DNA of 56,221 nt, from positions 460,084 through 516,304 of the forward strand of contig ML992514.1 of NCBI GenBank assembly GCA_010093995.1, in the 5' to 3' direction. This DNA is from Elsinoe ampelina (lineage: Eukaryota). Numbering within the stretch: position 1 is the stretch's first letter; each line of letters opens with the position of its first letter. Of the stretch, positions 267 through 56,221 are shown piece by piece. The notes beneath the pieces are model-generated. The model did not search any database, was not told the DNA's origin, and saw only the letters and a program-made list of their open reading frames with translations. A program made the translations under genes and the position numbers.

Positions 267-3200
267 TCACAGCATGGGGGTATCTACAATCGCAAGTTGG
301 CGTCGTTGCGATTCCGCCTCGATCAGCTTCGCCATGTCCTCTGCATCTTTCATTATCGCCACATCCAGCGCTGTGTGCCCGTAGTGGTCTGTTTCGTCTA
401 GGTTCAGGTCTTCTTGACTCAGGAGTAATTGCAAGACAGCGAGAGAGCCGCTGAGCACTGCTCCTATCAAGGGCACGTAGCCTGTTTTCTCGTGTTTGTT
501 GATGTTGCATCGCCATCTCTCTTCCATGGCTAGAAGGTACTTGACGCAGTCCGTTTCTGCTTTCTGGATGCTGAGGATGAGAGCTTCGTCAGATATGTCA
601 GGGGCCGCCCATTCTTTGAGATATAATTTATCTTGTCCGTCCCTCTGGAAATGTCTAAGCGCCTTTCCCGCCAGAGCAACGCTATAGTCTGAACTTAGTA
701 GCGGGGATATGGAAGCAACATCCTTCAAGTGGCGTTCTTGGTATGATAGAGAGGGACAATGCCACTGCGCCTCTTCCCCGCTTCCTCCTAAAAGGAGCAA
801 GATGACTCTGTTTCTCGTTGCCCGTACTTCGTCGGATTTTCTCGAGTGAGCAAGAGCACGCACCAGCATCGGGCGACGAATGTCCGCTCCTACGGCGCTC
901 ATCGTTGAGCACAATGCGTGCTCCTCCTCCACAGTAAGGTTTGAACACAGTCCGGGAAGGCTGTCCAATACACGGACACATTCCCACTGCCAATGACCTA
1001 GAGCCCGTTCAAGCATGCTACAACCATATCTGTCGTTGAGGTTCGCATCGATGTCGAATCGATCAAAAACTATTTTGAGGATTATTGCCCGTGTTTTGAG
1101 GTCTTTCCTGAAGCACGCAACAATCCCAAATGGCAGCTCGGCGTCAATCACAACCTGCCTCAGATCTAGGGGCCCGACTGCAAGCACGTCCAAAAGGTCG
1201 ATCAAACATTCTGCAGCACCAATGGTTTTAGATTCAAGTCTCAGCAGATGCGAGACCACCTCGCGATTGTCCAGGTCCTTTATGACCCGGTCATCCCGCA
1301 GCAGCTGCTTGACTGGGCGATGAAACCCCCAGCGTATACAAGTCTCAAGGACATGAATTGCTGACAGTGACCCTTGTGCAAACCACTCCTCAAGCCTCGC
1401 TGAGACGTTTACTACGTGATTTGGGTTGTCATCTTGCAATGCGATTTGCAAGAGCTGAGCTGCGTTCTCTGCAGAAGCGACGCTTTTGTCAAGGATCGAA
1501 CTCCATTCGAAAAGGGGTCGTTTTCGCAGCTCAGTGTAGAGATTGCTCATACCGTCAGATATGATGCGAAGGTCATCCCTGGCCAGTAACTGGTCGACGA
1601 TTTCATGACGTGCGTTTTCGCAGGCCCAAGTCAGAGCATTCATGTTGCCAAACCTGGGAATGTTAATTCTGTCATTCGTGCCGATGTATCCCAGCGCTAG
1701 GAGGTATGACATGGTCTCATGGAGGCCGTGCTTTGCAGCGCCTCTGATGAGTCCGGCGTTGAATGGCCTCTTTTGTGAGGTCGAATCGACCTGCAACACG
1801 GCTTTTGCGATCGCTTCGGCCCATGAACGTCTTCCTTTGAGCTCAACGAGCACAGCGACTAACTTAGCCTTCTCACAGGAGGCTAAAACGCGAATAGTAC
1901 CACTAAATGTGCGATGATGAGCGTAGGATGGACCCAGCTCAAGGATAGTGGCAAGACAATCAGAGTTGCCAGCCTCGATTGCAGCAGCAAATACTTCCGG
2001 TGGTCCGCGACCAGATTCAGGCAAGTCTATAGTTCCGAGCATCATCAATCGTAGCCTGAACAGACTGTGCAAGTCCCACGCAGCGAACCTTGCTAGATCC
2101 ACAGTGTAACGTCGCCCAACAAAGATTTTGAGTTGGCGATTGAGTCGAACCCATTCGCTGTCGTCAAAGTTCGTCAAGAAATCCGTCTGATCAACACTCT
2201 TGCTTTGTGCAGCATCCGCGTGGCGGTAGAGGAAACCCAGCACATATCCTAGTAAGGCATACCGGGTAAGGTAGCCCGCGAGTTCGGGATTCTTTGCTCG
2301 GCTCTTGATGCCTTCAGCGGACGCTGTCTGGATAGACCTTGGTGGGGGTGATTGGTGTTCGGGAGACGCACGAGGAGTGCTGAGGGGATTGTCCTCATCA
2401 GGAGGGTCGTCTCCGATCTCCCCGTCAGCCACATCAATTGCCCCTAAATTTGGCATTTCTGATCCTGCCCGGGTATCGCAGAAGTTGAGATACTCGATGC
2501 AGCCTGTTTTGATCGCATCGTGACTTCGACCTTCGAAAGTTGTCTTCTCTCCGAATCCATGCTTGTCAAGACCCCCTTTGAAGAAGAATTCTCTGACGGT
2601 CTCATGGATGAATTGTATACTGGATTTCTTCCGGCCGGGCGTCCGTTCCAGTAGTCCTTTGCAAGAGTCTAGTACAAAGCGCTGCATATCATCCTCGGTG
2701 ATATTGTCCAGTGCAGCATGACTGACGTCTCCCAGATCTGTCCCAGATTTGATCGCCCAGTAAAGCTCGGATACGGAGAGTGGTCGCCACGCAAACAGAA
2801 CCCATTGAGCCGACAGTACCATTCGAGCATCGGTATGGACACCTTGAACCATGATCTGTCCGAACAATTCCTCGAGGTCATCAGGGATGTCATGTAATCG
2901 TTGTTTCAGATTGATAATATTTCCCTTATCGTGCTCCTCGTTCAGTATCTTGGTGACAAGAACCACCCACAGAAACACACCGGCTGACCTTTCAAGGACG
3001 GATCTTCTCAAATCCGCGGCGCCCTTTCGTCCTCGCAGGACAAGTCTTCTCTGAATATACCGCTCGATATCAGCTCGGTGCTCGTCTTGGTCTTCGAGGA
3101 CGAGCTCAGTCCCAGCGCGAACGTCGAGATGAGGATAATGGCGACTCGAGAAGAAGATGCTCAGCTGTGGTACTTCTATGTTGTCATCGTCAAGCAATTC

Positions 3201-4003
3201 GTCGTGGAAAGAATCAACCATGTCCTTGACCTCGTCTGCTTTGCATTCATCAAGTGCATCGATGAAGAAGATAATACCATGTTCTTTCGAATTGCCCAGA
3301 GCGGCTCTCAAACTGTCCTTCACGACCTCCAGTTTCCACTGCAGTCCACCAGAATCGTCGCAAGGGAGGCGAATATCGTCGAGAATAGATTGGAGACCAG
3401 GTTCTCGCTCCAAAAGTTTCCAGAGCAATGTCCGCCACATACCAAGTGGTGACTGATCCAGCGCGCTTCCTCGAGCATTGTAGAAGAATGGTATCATTGC
3501 ACAGTCCTTCCGGTGTTTCGCAGTCTGATTGTACAAGTATTTCATCATGGTTGATTTGCCCGATGCTGGTTTGCCCTTCATCCAGATGAGCCTTTGGTCA
3601 CTGGACGCATGTCCACTTCCGGTCCAGGACTTGTATTCTAAACTATCCAGTATCCACGTGCATGTAGTCTTGAGATGCGGTTTGACGTTTTGGACTCGAT
3701 CGTCAAGTGAATCGTACTCCAGAGCTTCCATGTACAGCCTTCTCTTTTCAGCGATGTTAGCATCTCGTGGCTGTTGATCTTGCTGCTCCTGTCCATGGTC
3801 GGTCCACGAACTCGAGTGTCCAGGACCGTAATAGCTGCAATAGCATTAGCTAGCTTCAAGACACGATGATTGCGAGGTACGGACTTGTTCACGGTGCCGG
3901 TGCAGAGCGGTCCATGGTTGGTCTGCCGGACGACCTGGTTTCCGACTGCACCATGGTTGTTGTAGGTGGCGTCGAGAGCACTGTGTGGCCTCTTCAGCGA
4001 CAT
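267..4003 (-). CDS. Fungal NLR-like protein: short N-terminal N/G/Q-rich motif, NACHT domain, degenerate ankyrin repeats (~1228 aa; exons 4003-3885 and 3834-267)
   Basis: Walker A GKPASGKST, Walker B IIFFIDALDEC, FFSSRHYP, winged-helix GVFLWVVLV and IQFIHETVREF, and C-terminal ankyrin repeats (GYVPLIGAV, GHTALDVA). An inferred 50-nt intron at 3835-3884 (GTCCGT...GCTAAT...TGCAG) joins ATG 4003 in frame with the 1154-aa ORF. A TATA-like TATATAAA lies on the minus strand near 4174-4181. Confidence 0.9.
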
Positions 4004-4961
4004 GAAGTCAGGACTTCGCACCGCACGAATGTTGAATGGAGCGATTGCCACGAACGACATGCGGTCTGCTACATACTTGCGCTCCCGAGCTGGCGAAGCA
4101 GCCGTGGCGCAGGCGCCATCATGCAGCTAATATTCGAAGGCAACCAATCGCATGCAGTTAGCCTGTCCTCACTTTATATATTCACGGGCTCGAGACTCTA
4201 CAGTGTAGTGACTCCACGGTCAAGCTTCCCCTCGCTGTTGACAATCATCCACATCGTCTCAGTCCCAAGCGGTCCTTTAGCAGTACGTGCCCCATCAGTA
4301 GAACCGGCAAACAGCGGCAGAGCGCGACACGACTGTTCACTGCAGGAAGCCGCGATTAAGACGAGCACAGGAGGAATGAATCGTTATACAGACTAGAATA
4401 ATGCCAGCGATATTGATGAATGACGAAAGACAGCGGCTCTCAGGGAAAAGGCGTTGTAACTCCTGCGAAAGTTTGGTTCGGAAGCTCCGCATTGAGGGCG
4501 GCGGCCGTTTGGCGGAGTTGCCTCGGTGGTGGGGAAGCATTAGGTACTTAAGAAGACATCTATTGCAAACGAGAACGATAGATCTCGGGTAATTATATTA
4601 CAGTATATACAAGCAAGAGCTATGCATATGACAGCGACATGTGACAACCGTCAATTGAGATTCCTGTTGCCGTCCGGAGCTTGATCCGCAACAAAGAGCA
4701 ACAAGGGCAAGGCCGGACTTCACATGCCAAGCCGGTTCATGTTTCAACTCCGCTCCCTGGGGTGTCAGAGACAGAAGTGTACCCTAAAGTACAACTTTCG
4801 AACACGAGCTCCTTTTCAAACCCTTCGACTCCTTGCGGACACTCTTACTCCACTATTGATACAACAAGATTGTCCTGGACAACGCGACCGCATGAACACG
4901 CGACATTAGACGGCCAGCCTGATCTACCCCATGCAGTGCTGAGCACTTCCTGGCATTGGCC

Positions 4962-7900: not shown

Positions 7901-8573
7901 CGAACCCGTTGCACCTCGTGTAGGAGGGACAAAGACAGCCGCCAAGGTCGCCGACGACGATGACGAGGACGAAGAAGATTCCGAACCCGCGACCTTTGAG
8001 AATGACAACGTCCGCCCCGGCAGCTCTGTCAAATACCCCGGCCCCCCCGCCGCCGAACCCGCCGCGGCAGCCACCACCACCGATGCCCTTCCCCCCCCGG
8101 AATACACCCCACCACCCCCGCCCACCCACGAAGAATTCGTCGAATCCCGCATCTCCGAAGAACGCCTCCCGCCGGGCTTCCTCCACATCAACTCCCGCGA
8201 ATACATCCTCCGCCCGGAAGCCATCGAATCAGTATGGTACATGTACCGCATCACAGGCGACGTTCACTGGCGCAAAGTCGGGTGGACCATGTTCACCGCC
8301 ATCAGCGACCACACGAGAGGGGTGTACGGCAACAGCGCGATCGATGACGTGACGAAGAGTTTGCCGATGAAGAAGGATAGTCAGGAGAGTTTCTGGATGG
8401 CCGAGACGTTGAAGTATTTCTTTTTGTTGTTTAGTGAGGAGGATGTGGTGAGTTTGGATGAGTGGGTGCTGTGAGTATTCTACGAGATATGAGTTGGGGG
8501 TTAGGAGCTAATTATTGATAGGAACACGGAGGCGCATCCATTCAGGAGGCCGTTGCCGGGGAAGAAAGCATAG
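4962..8573 (+). CDS. Class I alpha-1,2-mannosidase, GH47 (type II membrane protein with long low-complexity insertions, ~1186 aa)
   Basis: N-terminal TM anchor after MLRYRRYR; GH47 motifs AWGHDEVRP, TLVDSLDTL, FETTIRYLGGLLSAY, GGRADSTYEY, HLACFAGG, YILRPEAIES, ESFWMAETLKY. Intron 8471-8521 restores the terminal LNTEAHPF motif; stop TAG at 8571-8573. Confidence 0.95.
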
Positions 8574-54299: not shown

Positions 54300-54722
54300 A
54301 GGCCGGAATGACGTTTGGGATATGGAAGGGAGTGGATCTTCGTGTAGATAGTAAAATCGGGCGTTTTGAACATAGATCACATGATCGTAGCGGGACTCTT
54401 GCGGATGATGTGGCTTATCCATGTCTTCCATCACGCCCACAGACAACGACAAGACTCGCAAGCCTCCATGTCAACTCACAACTCGATACTGGGTGTCGAG
54501 TTTCCATGTGTGCTCAGCCAATTATCGCCTGCCATGTCTTGTCCTCCAGCTGAACGAGCTGGACTGTCTGATTGGCTAGAAGCTATGCCTCAGGACTCGG
54601 ACAAGCGCCGCACCATCCTGGGCGCACGCATGAGCCGAGAAGGTCTTCGTTCTGCTTCGAAACTCATCACTCAAGCGGGACTCTTCTGCTGGATGGGCTT
54701 CTCTGCAATGCCATGAACAGAC

Positions 54723-55920
54723 ATGCCGCCGCGACCACGACCAAGGGGTCGATCAGACTTCGAAATCGCCATCATTTGCGCTTTGGTGCACGAAGCCAAC
54801 GCCATTGAAGATGCCTTCGACCATATCTGGGAGGACGAGGATGATTTCGGTTATGCTCCCGGGGATCTCAATCAATACACCACCGGCATGATCGGTAAGC
54901 ACAATGTCGTACTGGCGTACATGCCCGACATGGGGAGCGTCAGTGCCGCAAACGTGGCGACGAGTCTTGCGATGAGCTTCTCGAATATTCACCTTGCCAT
55001 CGTGGCTGGAATATGCGGCGGTGTGCCACAGCCCACAAACCACGACAAGGAGGTTTTCTTGGGAGATCTCGCGATAAGTACGGCTATCGTGCAATACGAC
55101 TTTGGTCGGCAGTATCCAAAAGGCTTCGAGAAGAAGATCGGCGTGCTAGAGAATGCAAGTCGGCCGGGACGACAGCTGAGGGCCTTCATCAACAAGATGC
55201 AGAGCAGACGATACTACCAGAGCATGCAGCAAGACCTCGTCGACATCATGGGTCAGCTGCAAGAGCTCTCGCCCGACGTGGCATATCCGGGCATCGAGAG
55301 CGATATGCTATTCCAACCTGATTTTCTACACAAGCATCGAAGCTCAGGGAGTCTCGATTGTGAATGCGGTCAAGGCGCGGAAGAGATCTGTCAGGCAGCT
55401 CATTCATTGGCATGCAATGCACTGGGTTGCAACGGAGCTACCGTCAATGGGAGACAACGACCAAGGACATCTCACTTGGACCTCACACCAGAGACGCATG
55501 CGCCTGCAATTCACTTCGGCACAATCGGGAGTGCTAACACTGTGATGAAGTCCGGTCGCCATCGAGAAGAAGTGGCCCGGGCCCATGGACTCATCGCCCT
55601 AGAAATGGAAGGTGCTGGCATTTGGGAGACCTTCCCGTGCTGCTTGGTCGTCAAGAGTGTCTGCGACTATGCGGACAGTCATAAGAACAAGATCTGGCAA
55701 ACATACTCAGCTTTCATCGCAGCCGCTGGTGTGAAGGCCCTTCTTCGTAAGTGGGAGCCGGTCAAGTCAGAACAAGAGGGTAGGTACTCTTGAACGATTT
55801 GTGATCAGATTATAGCTGACCATTACAGACTCCCGGCGAACGTTGAACAAGTACTGGATGGTGCAGCGACCCATCAGTACACGTTTCACGGGCAGAAGTG
55901 CCGAAATGACCAAGATTCAG
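54723..55920 (+). pseudogene. PNP_UDP-domain NLR gene, interrupted by an LTR insertion just before the expected NB-ARC/NACHT P-loop
   Basis: PNP_UDP_1 motifs FEIAIICAL, YTTGMIGKHNVV, AGICGGVP, VQYDFGRQ, IHFGTIGSANTVMKSG, ALEMEGAGIW, VKSVCDYADSHKNK. After intron 55780-55828 the frame reads KYWMVQRPISTRFTGRSAEM, the usual pre-P-loop motif, then meets the LTR edge. Confidence 0.8.
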
Positions 55921-56221
55921 TGTTGTAACTGGCAAATCGGATCGAGAGACGTGTGTTTTATTCAGAGAGTTACAATAACCGATTTATCTACTGTGTGTGC
56001 GCTGACTTATTAGTACCAGTTCTTTAGTACTAGAGAAGCTATACTAGCCTTCTATTATAACACTCCCCCTCTAGTATAGATTATTAAAGCTAGAGAACTG
56101 TCCTATTATATGTAAGTAAAGTAATTAGCTTATTACTTTATCTCTTTATAATTGCTTATAATTGTTAGTGTTAGCTAATTATTAGTAAGAATTTACTATT
56201 AGTTTAGCTTATAATTACTAG
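55921..56221 (-). mobile_element. 3' end of an LTR retrotransposon, probably Ty1/copia type, in reverse orientation and RIP-degraded: LTR 55921-56062, PPT 56063-56072
   Basis: On the minus strand, the PPT AGAGGGGGAG is followed directly by TGTTAT...ACAACA, a 142-bp LTR with TGTT/AACA inverted termini. The interior is AT-rich and TpA-rich with no ORF. Confidence 0.8.

Follow-up and report, generated by a model that had tools for sequence, protein, structure and literature searches.

Fungal NLRs can be coupled to a separate effector protein by a short amyloid signalling motif. In the NWD2/HET-S system of Podospora anserina, NWD2 oligomers are described as nucleating an amyloid fold that templates HET-S. 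HET-s, PP, PUASM, BASS1, and BASS3 are the tested members of this layout, and the passages compared here report them as amyloid or prion-forming. The sections of PMC9815663 used here present PUASM peptides as fibril- and prion-forming, and the NLR12 class as one in which several non-adjacent receptors are tied to one PNP_UDP effector. The same sections describe a scan of all NLR N-termini with 16 motif profiles, PP included. The signatures found in written form there and in related papers are NxGxQxGxN for PP, G-hydrophobic-Q-hydrophobic-G for RHIM/PP/BASS3, and FxGxGxQxxGxGxF for PUASM; passages of PMC5485727, PMC13449251, bioRxiv 2020.01.06.895854, and 2020.07.22.215483 also served for the comparisons. 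Few amyloid signalling motif families have been described in ascomycetes, and surveys based on large clusters or adjacent gene pairs overlook motif families that are genus-restricted and dispersed.

The window analyzed here is a stretch of 56,221 nucleotides of Elsinoe ampelina (contig ML992514.1, C14 below, positions 460,084 to 516,304). A preliminary description, made from the sequence alone, proposed that a hidden first exon gives a NACHT-ankyrin receptor in this stretch a candidate amyloid signalling motif in place of an effector domain. The receptor gene lies on the minus strand. It consists of a 119-nt exon beginning at ATG 4003 and an open frame of 1192 codons, which are joined once 3835-3884 is removed. 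The product of this transcript, started at Met 4003, is 1228 amino acids long. The features of the gene are as follows.

4004..4556, minus strand: transcribed leader with 10 upstream ATGs; 4556 is the end of a contig and not a mapped start site
4004..4060, minus strand: in-frame upstream extension of 19 codons, included in the public gene model
3885..4003, minus strand: first coding exon (119 nt, phase 2, beginning at Met 4003), encoding the bulk of the motif
3885..3967, minus strand: portion of the candidate amyloid signalling motif that lies in exon 1 (residues 13-40), matching the C-terminus of a PNP_UDP effector
3835..3884, minus strand: intron, 50 nt, GT-AG, phase 2, with a GTCCGT donor, a GCTAAT branch-like site, and a TTGCAG acceptor; read-supported
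3828..3834, minus strand: end of the motif in exon 2 (residues 40-42); the effector alignment crosses the splice junction
267..3834, minus strand: exon 2, with linker, NACHT, winged helix, ankyrin region, and stop
3141..3665, minus strand: NTPase of the NACHT type, containing sequences like Walker A and Walker B (Pfam NPHP3_N, E 3.6e-26)
2565..2807, minus strand: winged-helix-like region (GPIID_WHD, E 0.00039, below the curated cut-off)
321..1643, minus strand: ankyrin-repeat region with Pfam matches at both ends (Ank_2, E 2e-15)

Numerous alternative GT-AG pairs preserve the frame; hence, reads were needed to settle the intron. The joint 3834/3885 was present in the assembled contigs of three of four runs (X1, X2, and X3, from two studies), and the fourth run, X6, had nearly no cover over it. 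Intron 8471-8521 of a neighbouring gene, used as a control, was spliced in all four runs. None of the runs is recorded as RNA; the RNA origin is deduced from the spliced joints in the two genes. The receptor gene is transcribed: a single X1 contig covers 272-4556. The 50-nt joint was the sole splice joint observed within it. A transcript start at Met 3731 was ruled out because the contig extends to 4556, and splicing to another exon was ruled out because no joint other than the 50-nt one was observed. The intron proposed earlier is thus real, and the N-terminus read from Met 4003 is exactly as first written.

The word 'hidden' applied to the first exon in one respect only. ORF-only calling does miss it, and relatives P0008 and P0125 accordingly begin directly before NACHT. 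The public model KAF2219993.1 (Elsinoe ampelina, 1247 aa), which represents the same gene, already includes the intron and starts at the in-frame ATG 4060. Orthologue P0007 and paralogue P0134 start near the position equivalent to Met 4003. By these two models, Met 4003, the start chosen in the preliminary description, is a plausible alternative to ATG 4060. The 10 upstream ATGs in the leader 4004-4556 could hold the translation of an immune-type receptor low.

Pfam assigned only NPHP3_N/NACHT, the winged helix, and ankyrin repeats to the protein, and exon 1 had no Pfam match. No N-terminal effector domain was found by Pfam, as had been claimed. The ankyrin region (321..1643) is presumed to be the sensor.

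A search of the 28.3-Mb genome with the exon-1 peptide returned one non-self place, C2:1891631-1891714 (E 3.8e-5). The reverse search, with the tail of the protein encoded there, returned the window exon alone (E 9.5e-6); both searches score just the candidates from a loose first look, and weaker copies escape them. The gene at this place (C2:1890650-1891732) is intron-free and encodes a stand-alone PNP_UDP_1 protein of 360 aa, KAF2226877.1, which carries one motif copy at its extreme C-terminus. Residues 13-42 of the receptor align with this tail ungapped, with 18 of 30 residues identical, and none of 1000 shuffles scored as high. The two copies therefore occupy the two ends expected of such a pair, the receptor N-terminus and the effector C-terminus.

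Of the 25 PNP loci in the genome, one has the motif. The effector matched 23 of them by tblastn and missed the two strongest Pfam matches, which are taken to be housekeeping enzymes. According to the preliminary description, no effector with a matching motif was visible in the window, and any partner would lie to the left of position 1 or elsewhere. The first statement stood, since the PNP_UDP gene within the window (54717-55793) lacks the motif and was rejected as a partner. Of the two places named in the second, 'elsewhere' proved right: the 10 kb examined to the left hold genes that read as housekeeping, none of them motif-bearing, and KAF2226877.1 lies on another contig. It is one of the kinds of protein for which a proteome search had been suggested, a separate PNP_UDP-type effector with a similar C-terminal motif. 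A second effector was also sought. A degenerate DNA pattern with up to three mismatches gave five places in the genome, the known two and three unrelated chance matches, and the candidates were dropped.

Adjacency of the receptor and effector genes is usual, and not universal, in fungal NLR amyloid signalling. The receptor gene of the window does not adjoin the effector gene; a repeat-less paralogue, KAF2226876.1, does. About 0.87 kb separates this NACHT gene from the effector gene downstream, the classic arrangement of an adjacent pair. The NACHT product is 482 aa long, lacks a repeat domain, and has a variant motif; tblastn finds no remnant of repeats. The KAF2226876.1 motif scores 44 against the effector tail versus 108 for the window copy, which is the best match among all six receptors found in the genome and is also transcribed and spliced. 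The window copy differs at three effector-invariant positions, with Val for Gly after Q-V and Cys-Thr for Tyr-Phe, and could be weakened by these departures.

All 48 NPHP3_N matches and all 21 NB-ARC matches of the genome, two partly overlapping sets, were examined for the motif. It stands at the start of four of the 48 NACHT-type loci, on C14 (the window), C8, C9, and C2, and all four are rows of the alignment from which the motif profile was built. Two tandem NB-ARC-TPR genes on C15, neither of which was used to build the profile, also carry it, with the motifs 3481 bases apart. The first copy is clear (21.8 bits, iE 4.3e-5 over 5704 segments) and the second is weak (8.8 bits, iE 0.48). In a comparison with the five effector tails described below, no more than 2 of 1000 shuffles attained the score of either C15 copy; both copies had, however, been selected by the profile beforehand. 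A genome search with the first C15 motif returned its twin alone and not the effector.

A phase-2 intron of 42 nt is predicted in the first C15 gene; it interrupts, after Val-Asn, the very Asn codon that is also interrupted in the window and C8 genes. The C9 model has a phase-2 intron some codons further on, and the C2 gene and the second C15 gene lack an intron at this place; among the introns compared, that of the window is read-supported and the others are predicted. Because the same intron position precedes two NTPase types, NACHT and NB-ARC, the gene structures suggest that the motif exon moved as a unit between receptor types.

Further observations were made on the NACHT genes of this genome. 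The motif-bearing genes on C2 (L020:4337-5785) and C8 (L022:6663-8570) are short, 482 and 617 aa, with no Pfam repeat domain, and may be decayed genes or sensor-less helpers. Some 200-300 bases upstream of its NACHT match, another NACHT gene (L014; C1 near 2236900) carries a G/Q/N-rich stretch of a different sort. The profile does not score this stretch, which is possibly another amyloid-like motif.

The motif was then followed in other species. Among the best 120 of 414 NACHT homologues, seven carry it, the window protein included, and six of these are assigned to Elsinoe. Against the effector motif, the carriers score 47-108; none of the other 112 homologues that could be scored, which include many PNP fusions, exceeds 30. 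A motif profile was built from an 11-row alignment in which a single row represents the effector side. Against 6393 candidates it gave 16 matches (3 PNP_UDP, 12 NACHT, and 1 NLR N-terminal fragment), 14 of them from Elsinoe. Against 1.84 billion representatives it gave 26 matches, of which 12 were full single matches; the remaining 14 were dropped as repeat proteins that sum partial matches, each of at most 12.6 bits. Of the 13 receptor-side proteins, ten served as training rows for the profile and three are closely related to such rows; hence, the independent evidence consists of four effectors, the 56-aa fragment, and the NB-ARC genes.

These four further effectors, recovered by the profile, are E. 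batatas KAG8627710.1, E. australis PSK59456.1, E. fawcettii KAF4555592.1, and one more. In all five effectors the motif directly follows the PNP domain via a short linker. Seventeen alignment columns are invariant over the five, although the PNP domains of the other effectors are just 56-68% identical to that of KAF2226877.1. The E. batatas effector and the window motif share 19 of 28 residues. The effector side occurs in four Elsinoe species and the receptor side in the same four. Of the conditions named beforehand as refuting the idea, none that could be checked on sequence was borne out. No carrier was assigned outside Elsinoe, with the reservation that, in so large a library, a profile of 34 positions must reach about 35 bits and distant members could escape it. 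Metagenome and prokaryote collections gave two loci and one locus, all partial and in short or antisense frames, which were taken as chance. PDB sequences gave no match to the profile, and the ESM Atlas gave no usable feature match for the receptor or effector motif, a result that bears on neither novelty nor absence.

In a NACHT tree of 131 rows (quick method), a branch with support 96 separates the 11 motif rows from 109 other homologues; P0006 and P0137, in which the Walker A pattern is unmatched, are omitted, and the root rests on long branches, so the tree does not show a single origin. P0017, a NACHT-ankyrin homologue that neighbours the motif rows in the tree, has a different G/N-rich N-terminal stretch unmatched by the profile. 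In the closest homologue, P0006 (E. batatas KAG8629851.1; 87% over the matched part), the gene model begins beyond Walker A, and annotation has probably missed the first exon and the motif. In E. australis the orthologue appears split into a 120-aa motif piece, PSK53960.1 (P0139), and a NACHT piece, PSK53961.1, and TKX24551.1 is whole; a presence/absence polymorphism or an annotation split is possible. The effector models P0144 (E. australis) and P0145 (E. fawcettii) extend 60-75 residues beyond the motif, and the other three do not; the added residues may be genuine or an artefact of the gene models.

The effector-side pattern is NN-x-G-x-[VI]-G-x-Q-[VI]-G-x-QT-x-x-GP-x-YFGTV. The motif is composed of 36.5% N+Q+G and 6.7% charged residues, versus 12.9% and 24.9% in the rest of the same NLRs. 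It had been suggested beforehand to be PP-like but divergent, and possibly unclassified. The NxGxQxGxN core of PP was found in none of the 5 effectors and none of the 13 receptor-side proteins. G-hydrophobic-Q-hydrophobic-G and the PUASM pattern FxGxGxQxxGxGxF were each absent from all 18 copies. The looser GxQxG occurs in 5/5 effectors, with Val or Ile after Q, and in 0/13 receptor-side proteins. 'PP-like' thus drew weak support, from this looser form on the effector side. The 11 alignment members matched no Pfam family at E up to 10, HET-s included. PF17046 (PP) and PF17106 (sigma) had no match anywhere in the genome, and PF11558 (HET-s related) had one weak match (E 0.58) located elsewhere than the motif. 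The sigma motif is about 40 residues of repeated sub-motifs.

The strongest test of family membership is an indirect one, from published data. The E. australis carriers PSK59339.1 and PSK60658.1 are listed in PMC9815663 S1 Table as not clustered and 'noasm', with no NLR07/NLR39, NLR28, or NLR12/13/40 call; the Elsinoe motif thus sat in a published data set, scored as absent. The effector PSK59456.1 does not appear in the supplementary material of PMC9815663 that was searched. Six short words sought in the cluster alignments of that paper were found in none of the rows listed, the alignments being gapped. The GDQN motif, as given in the part of PMC12261475 compared, is absent from the copies here. 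Searches of the literature on Elsinoe NACHT/NLR proteins and on PNP_UDP amyloid NLRs, which covered few subscription journals, gave no report of the motif. Judged by written patterns, Pfam, and the 'noasm' status of two carriers, the best reading is that the motif is a family of its own outside the described classes.

A strongly diverged PP/RHIM-type or PF01048_015-type motif would leave the amyloid signalling and the effector as they are and would rival the family claim, not the mechanism. The GxQxG of all five effectors, with its Val or Ile, is what a diverged PP or RHIM motif might retain, and PP motifs also occur with PNP_UDP effectors in the sections of PMC9815663 compared. The full cores NxGxQxGxN and G-hydrophobic-Q-hydrophobic-G, each at 0/18, speak against it, as do the empty Pfam searches of the 11 members, the genome without PF17046 or PF17106, and the 'noasm' status of PSK59339.1 and PSK60658.1 under 16 profiles that include PP. 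The receptor side of PF01048_015 in Fusarium has, by eye, a G-x-N/Q-V-V stretch and an N/G/T-rich make-up in common with the Elsinoe motif; the QT-x-x-GP-x-YFGTV half is absent from its receptor sequences compared. We regard this explanation as rather unlikely and prefer a separate family.

The gene would then encode a NACHT-ankyrin NLR whose first exon specifies an amyloid signalling motif of about 30 residues. By the NWD2/HET-S paradigm, ligand binding would cause the NLR to oligomerise, the clustered N-terminal motifs would nucleate a cross-beta fold, and this fold would template the effector tail and thereby cluster the PNP_UDP enzyme. By analogy with the fungal NLR PNP ATP nucleosidase, the clustered enzyme would cleave ATP, leading to arrest or death of the cell compartment. 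One effector would serve four NACHT receptors and, probably, two of the NB-ARC-TPR type, with adjacency not required. Amyloid signalling from the receptor to KAF2226877.1 is, in our judgement, probable.

The effector keeps Glu/Asp at the positions aligned with MTA/SAH nucleosidases, which we take to be the catalytic positions of those enzymes. The PADLOC 'Effector PN-superfamily' model matches 5/5 effectors. The PNP domain of the effector is close to the PNP domains of fused PNP-NACHT-ANK proteins and is up to 54.5% identical to PNP domains fused to NLRs. The NLR PNP domain of Hyaloscypha variabilis was toxic in E. coli and cleaved ATP, as described in the passages of 10.1101/2023.01.24.525353 compared here. 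An ATP-cleaving output of the Elsinoe effector, a further step along the same analogy, is probable. The isolated fungal PNP domain in those passages was active and toxic by itself; a stand-alone copy would have to be restrained in some way, a point against the mechanism. Single-sequence AlphaFold2 of the effector gave a pLDDT of 34, and a complex prediction with three plus three motif copies scored 0.03 against a mark of 0.34; the former was set aside and the latter speaks neither for nor against the pairing.

The shared peptide could instead be a docking or scaffolding segment that is not amyloid, pairing receptor with enzyme or receptor with receptor by ordinary beta-strand contacts and having no self-templating fold. 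All the pairing and conservation data are compatible with any homotypic contact, the motif contains a conserved Gly-Pro, and the sections of PMC9815663 compared propose a scaffold role in NLRs for internal amyloid-like motifs. Its position at the NLR N-terminus and the effector C-terminus, its length, and its N/Q/G composition fit the described amyloid systems, and the tested members of that layout (HET-s, PP, PUASM, BASS1, and BASS3) are reported in the passages compared as amyloid or prion-forming; we consider a docking role improbable. Still less can be said for a relic, namely a linker duplicated at both ends when a PNP-NACHT fusion split or a decayed window copy that no longer signals: it would suit the closeness of the effector PNP domain to fused PNP-NACHT-ANK proteins, the two short motif-bearing NACHT genes among four (482 and 617 aa, no Pfam repeat domain), and the loss of the YF pair from the window copy, and it is quite improbable given the low scores (30 or less) of the 112 other NACHT homologues with their many PNP fusions against 47-108 for carriers, the 17 columns kept invariant while the PNP domains diverged, the motif on NB-ARC receptors, and a window copy that is the best match of all six, transcribed, and spliced.

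Beyond amyloid signalling itself, a wider reading is offered tentatively, as a possibility short of an expectation. A genus-restricted amyloid 'plug', carried on a small phase-2 first exon and shuffled among NACHT and NB-ARC receptors, might connect six or more dispersed sensors with one ATP-destroying enzyme that is gated by amyloid. If true, such a fungal immune network would have a single metabolic kill switch. The shared NACHT/NB-ARC intron position would be a concrete route to the domain mixing of fungal NLRs. The motif would link fungal amyloid signalling with immune ATP cleavage, which are kept separate in the literature compared, and the defined receptor/effector peptide pair lets the amyloid switching of an enzyme, rather than of a pore, be tested.

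One observation concerns the end of the window. At 54717-56221, after a PNP_UDP_1 exon come an intron-like stretch, a short frame resembling an NB-ARC start, and then AT-rich, TpA-rich DNA. GC is 0.20-0.36 from 56001, in the vicinity of a gene-poor stretch of the contig. This region is probably a PNP-NLR interrupted by RIP-like repeat DNA.

The kind of system is known; this instance combines a motif sequence outside the described families, dispersed many-to-one wiring, and a hint of exon shuffling. The following comparisons refer to the parts of the cited papers used here. The PUASM/PNP_UDP two-component systems (NLR32; Wojciechowski et al. 2022, PMC9815663) are likewise ascomycete and pair an N-terminal motif on a NACHT NLR with a C-terminal motif on PNP_UDP. 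They differ in the motif, the PUASM pattern being found in 0/18 copies here, and in that the Elsinoe receptors mostly lie at a distance from the effector and include NB-ARC-TPR proteins. In NLR12 (HRAM3-like; PMC9815663), too, a PNP_UDP effector bears one motif copy and is served by several receptors, and the genes are mostly not neighbours, whereas the E. australis carriers are unmatched by the NLR12 profile and no HET-s Pfam match occurs here. PP (PNT1/HELLP/SBP), RHIM, and BASS3 resemble the Elsinoe motif in the G-x-Q-[VI]-G of the effectors, the N/G/Q-rich composition, and the layout. The Elsinoe motif differs from them in having no NxGxQxGxN, a polar residue before Q, receptor copies without the second Gly, and about 30 rather than about 20 residues. 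PF01048_015 (PMC9815663, S5 Table) is also a minor PNP_UDP-associated class outside the 16 receptor profiles. Its rows compared here come from Fusarium, Verticillium, and Torrubiella NB-ARC receptors and one Pseudogymnoascus NACHT, and its Fusarium receptor lacks the QT-x-x-GP-x-YFGTV half; compared by eye only, it may be a distant relation. The Cap17-like immune ATP nucleosidases, including the Hyaloscypha variabilis NLR PNP (10.1101/2023.01.24.525353), are of the same NLR-associated PNP_UDP_1 type, and the acidic positions appear intact in the aligned Elsinoe effector. In those enzymes the domain is fused to the receptor, and amyloid is unmentioned in the passages compared. NWD2/HET-S of Podospora anserina differs in using a HeLo pore-former with two repeats, where Elsinoe has an enzyme with one copy, and shows no sequence match; it is nevertheless the mechanistic model for the present pair, in that the N-terminal motif of an NLR templates the fold of a separate effector.
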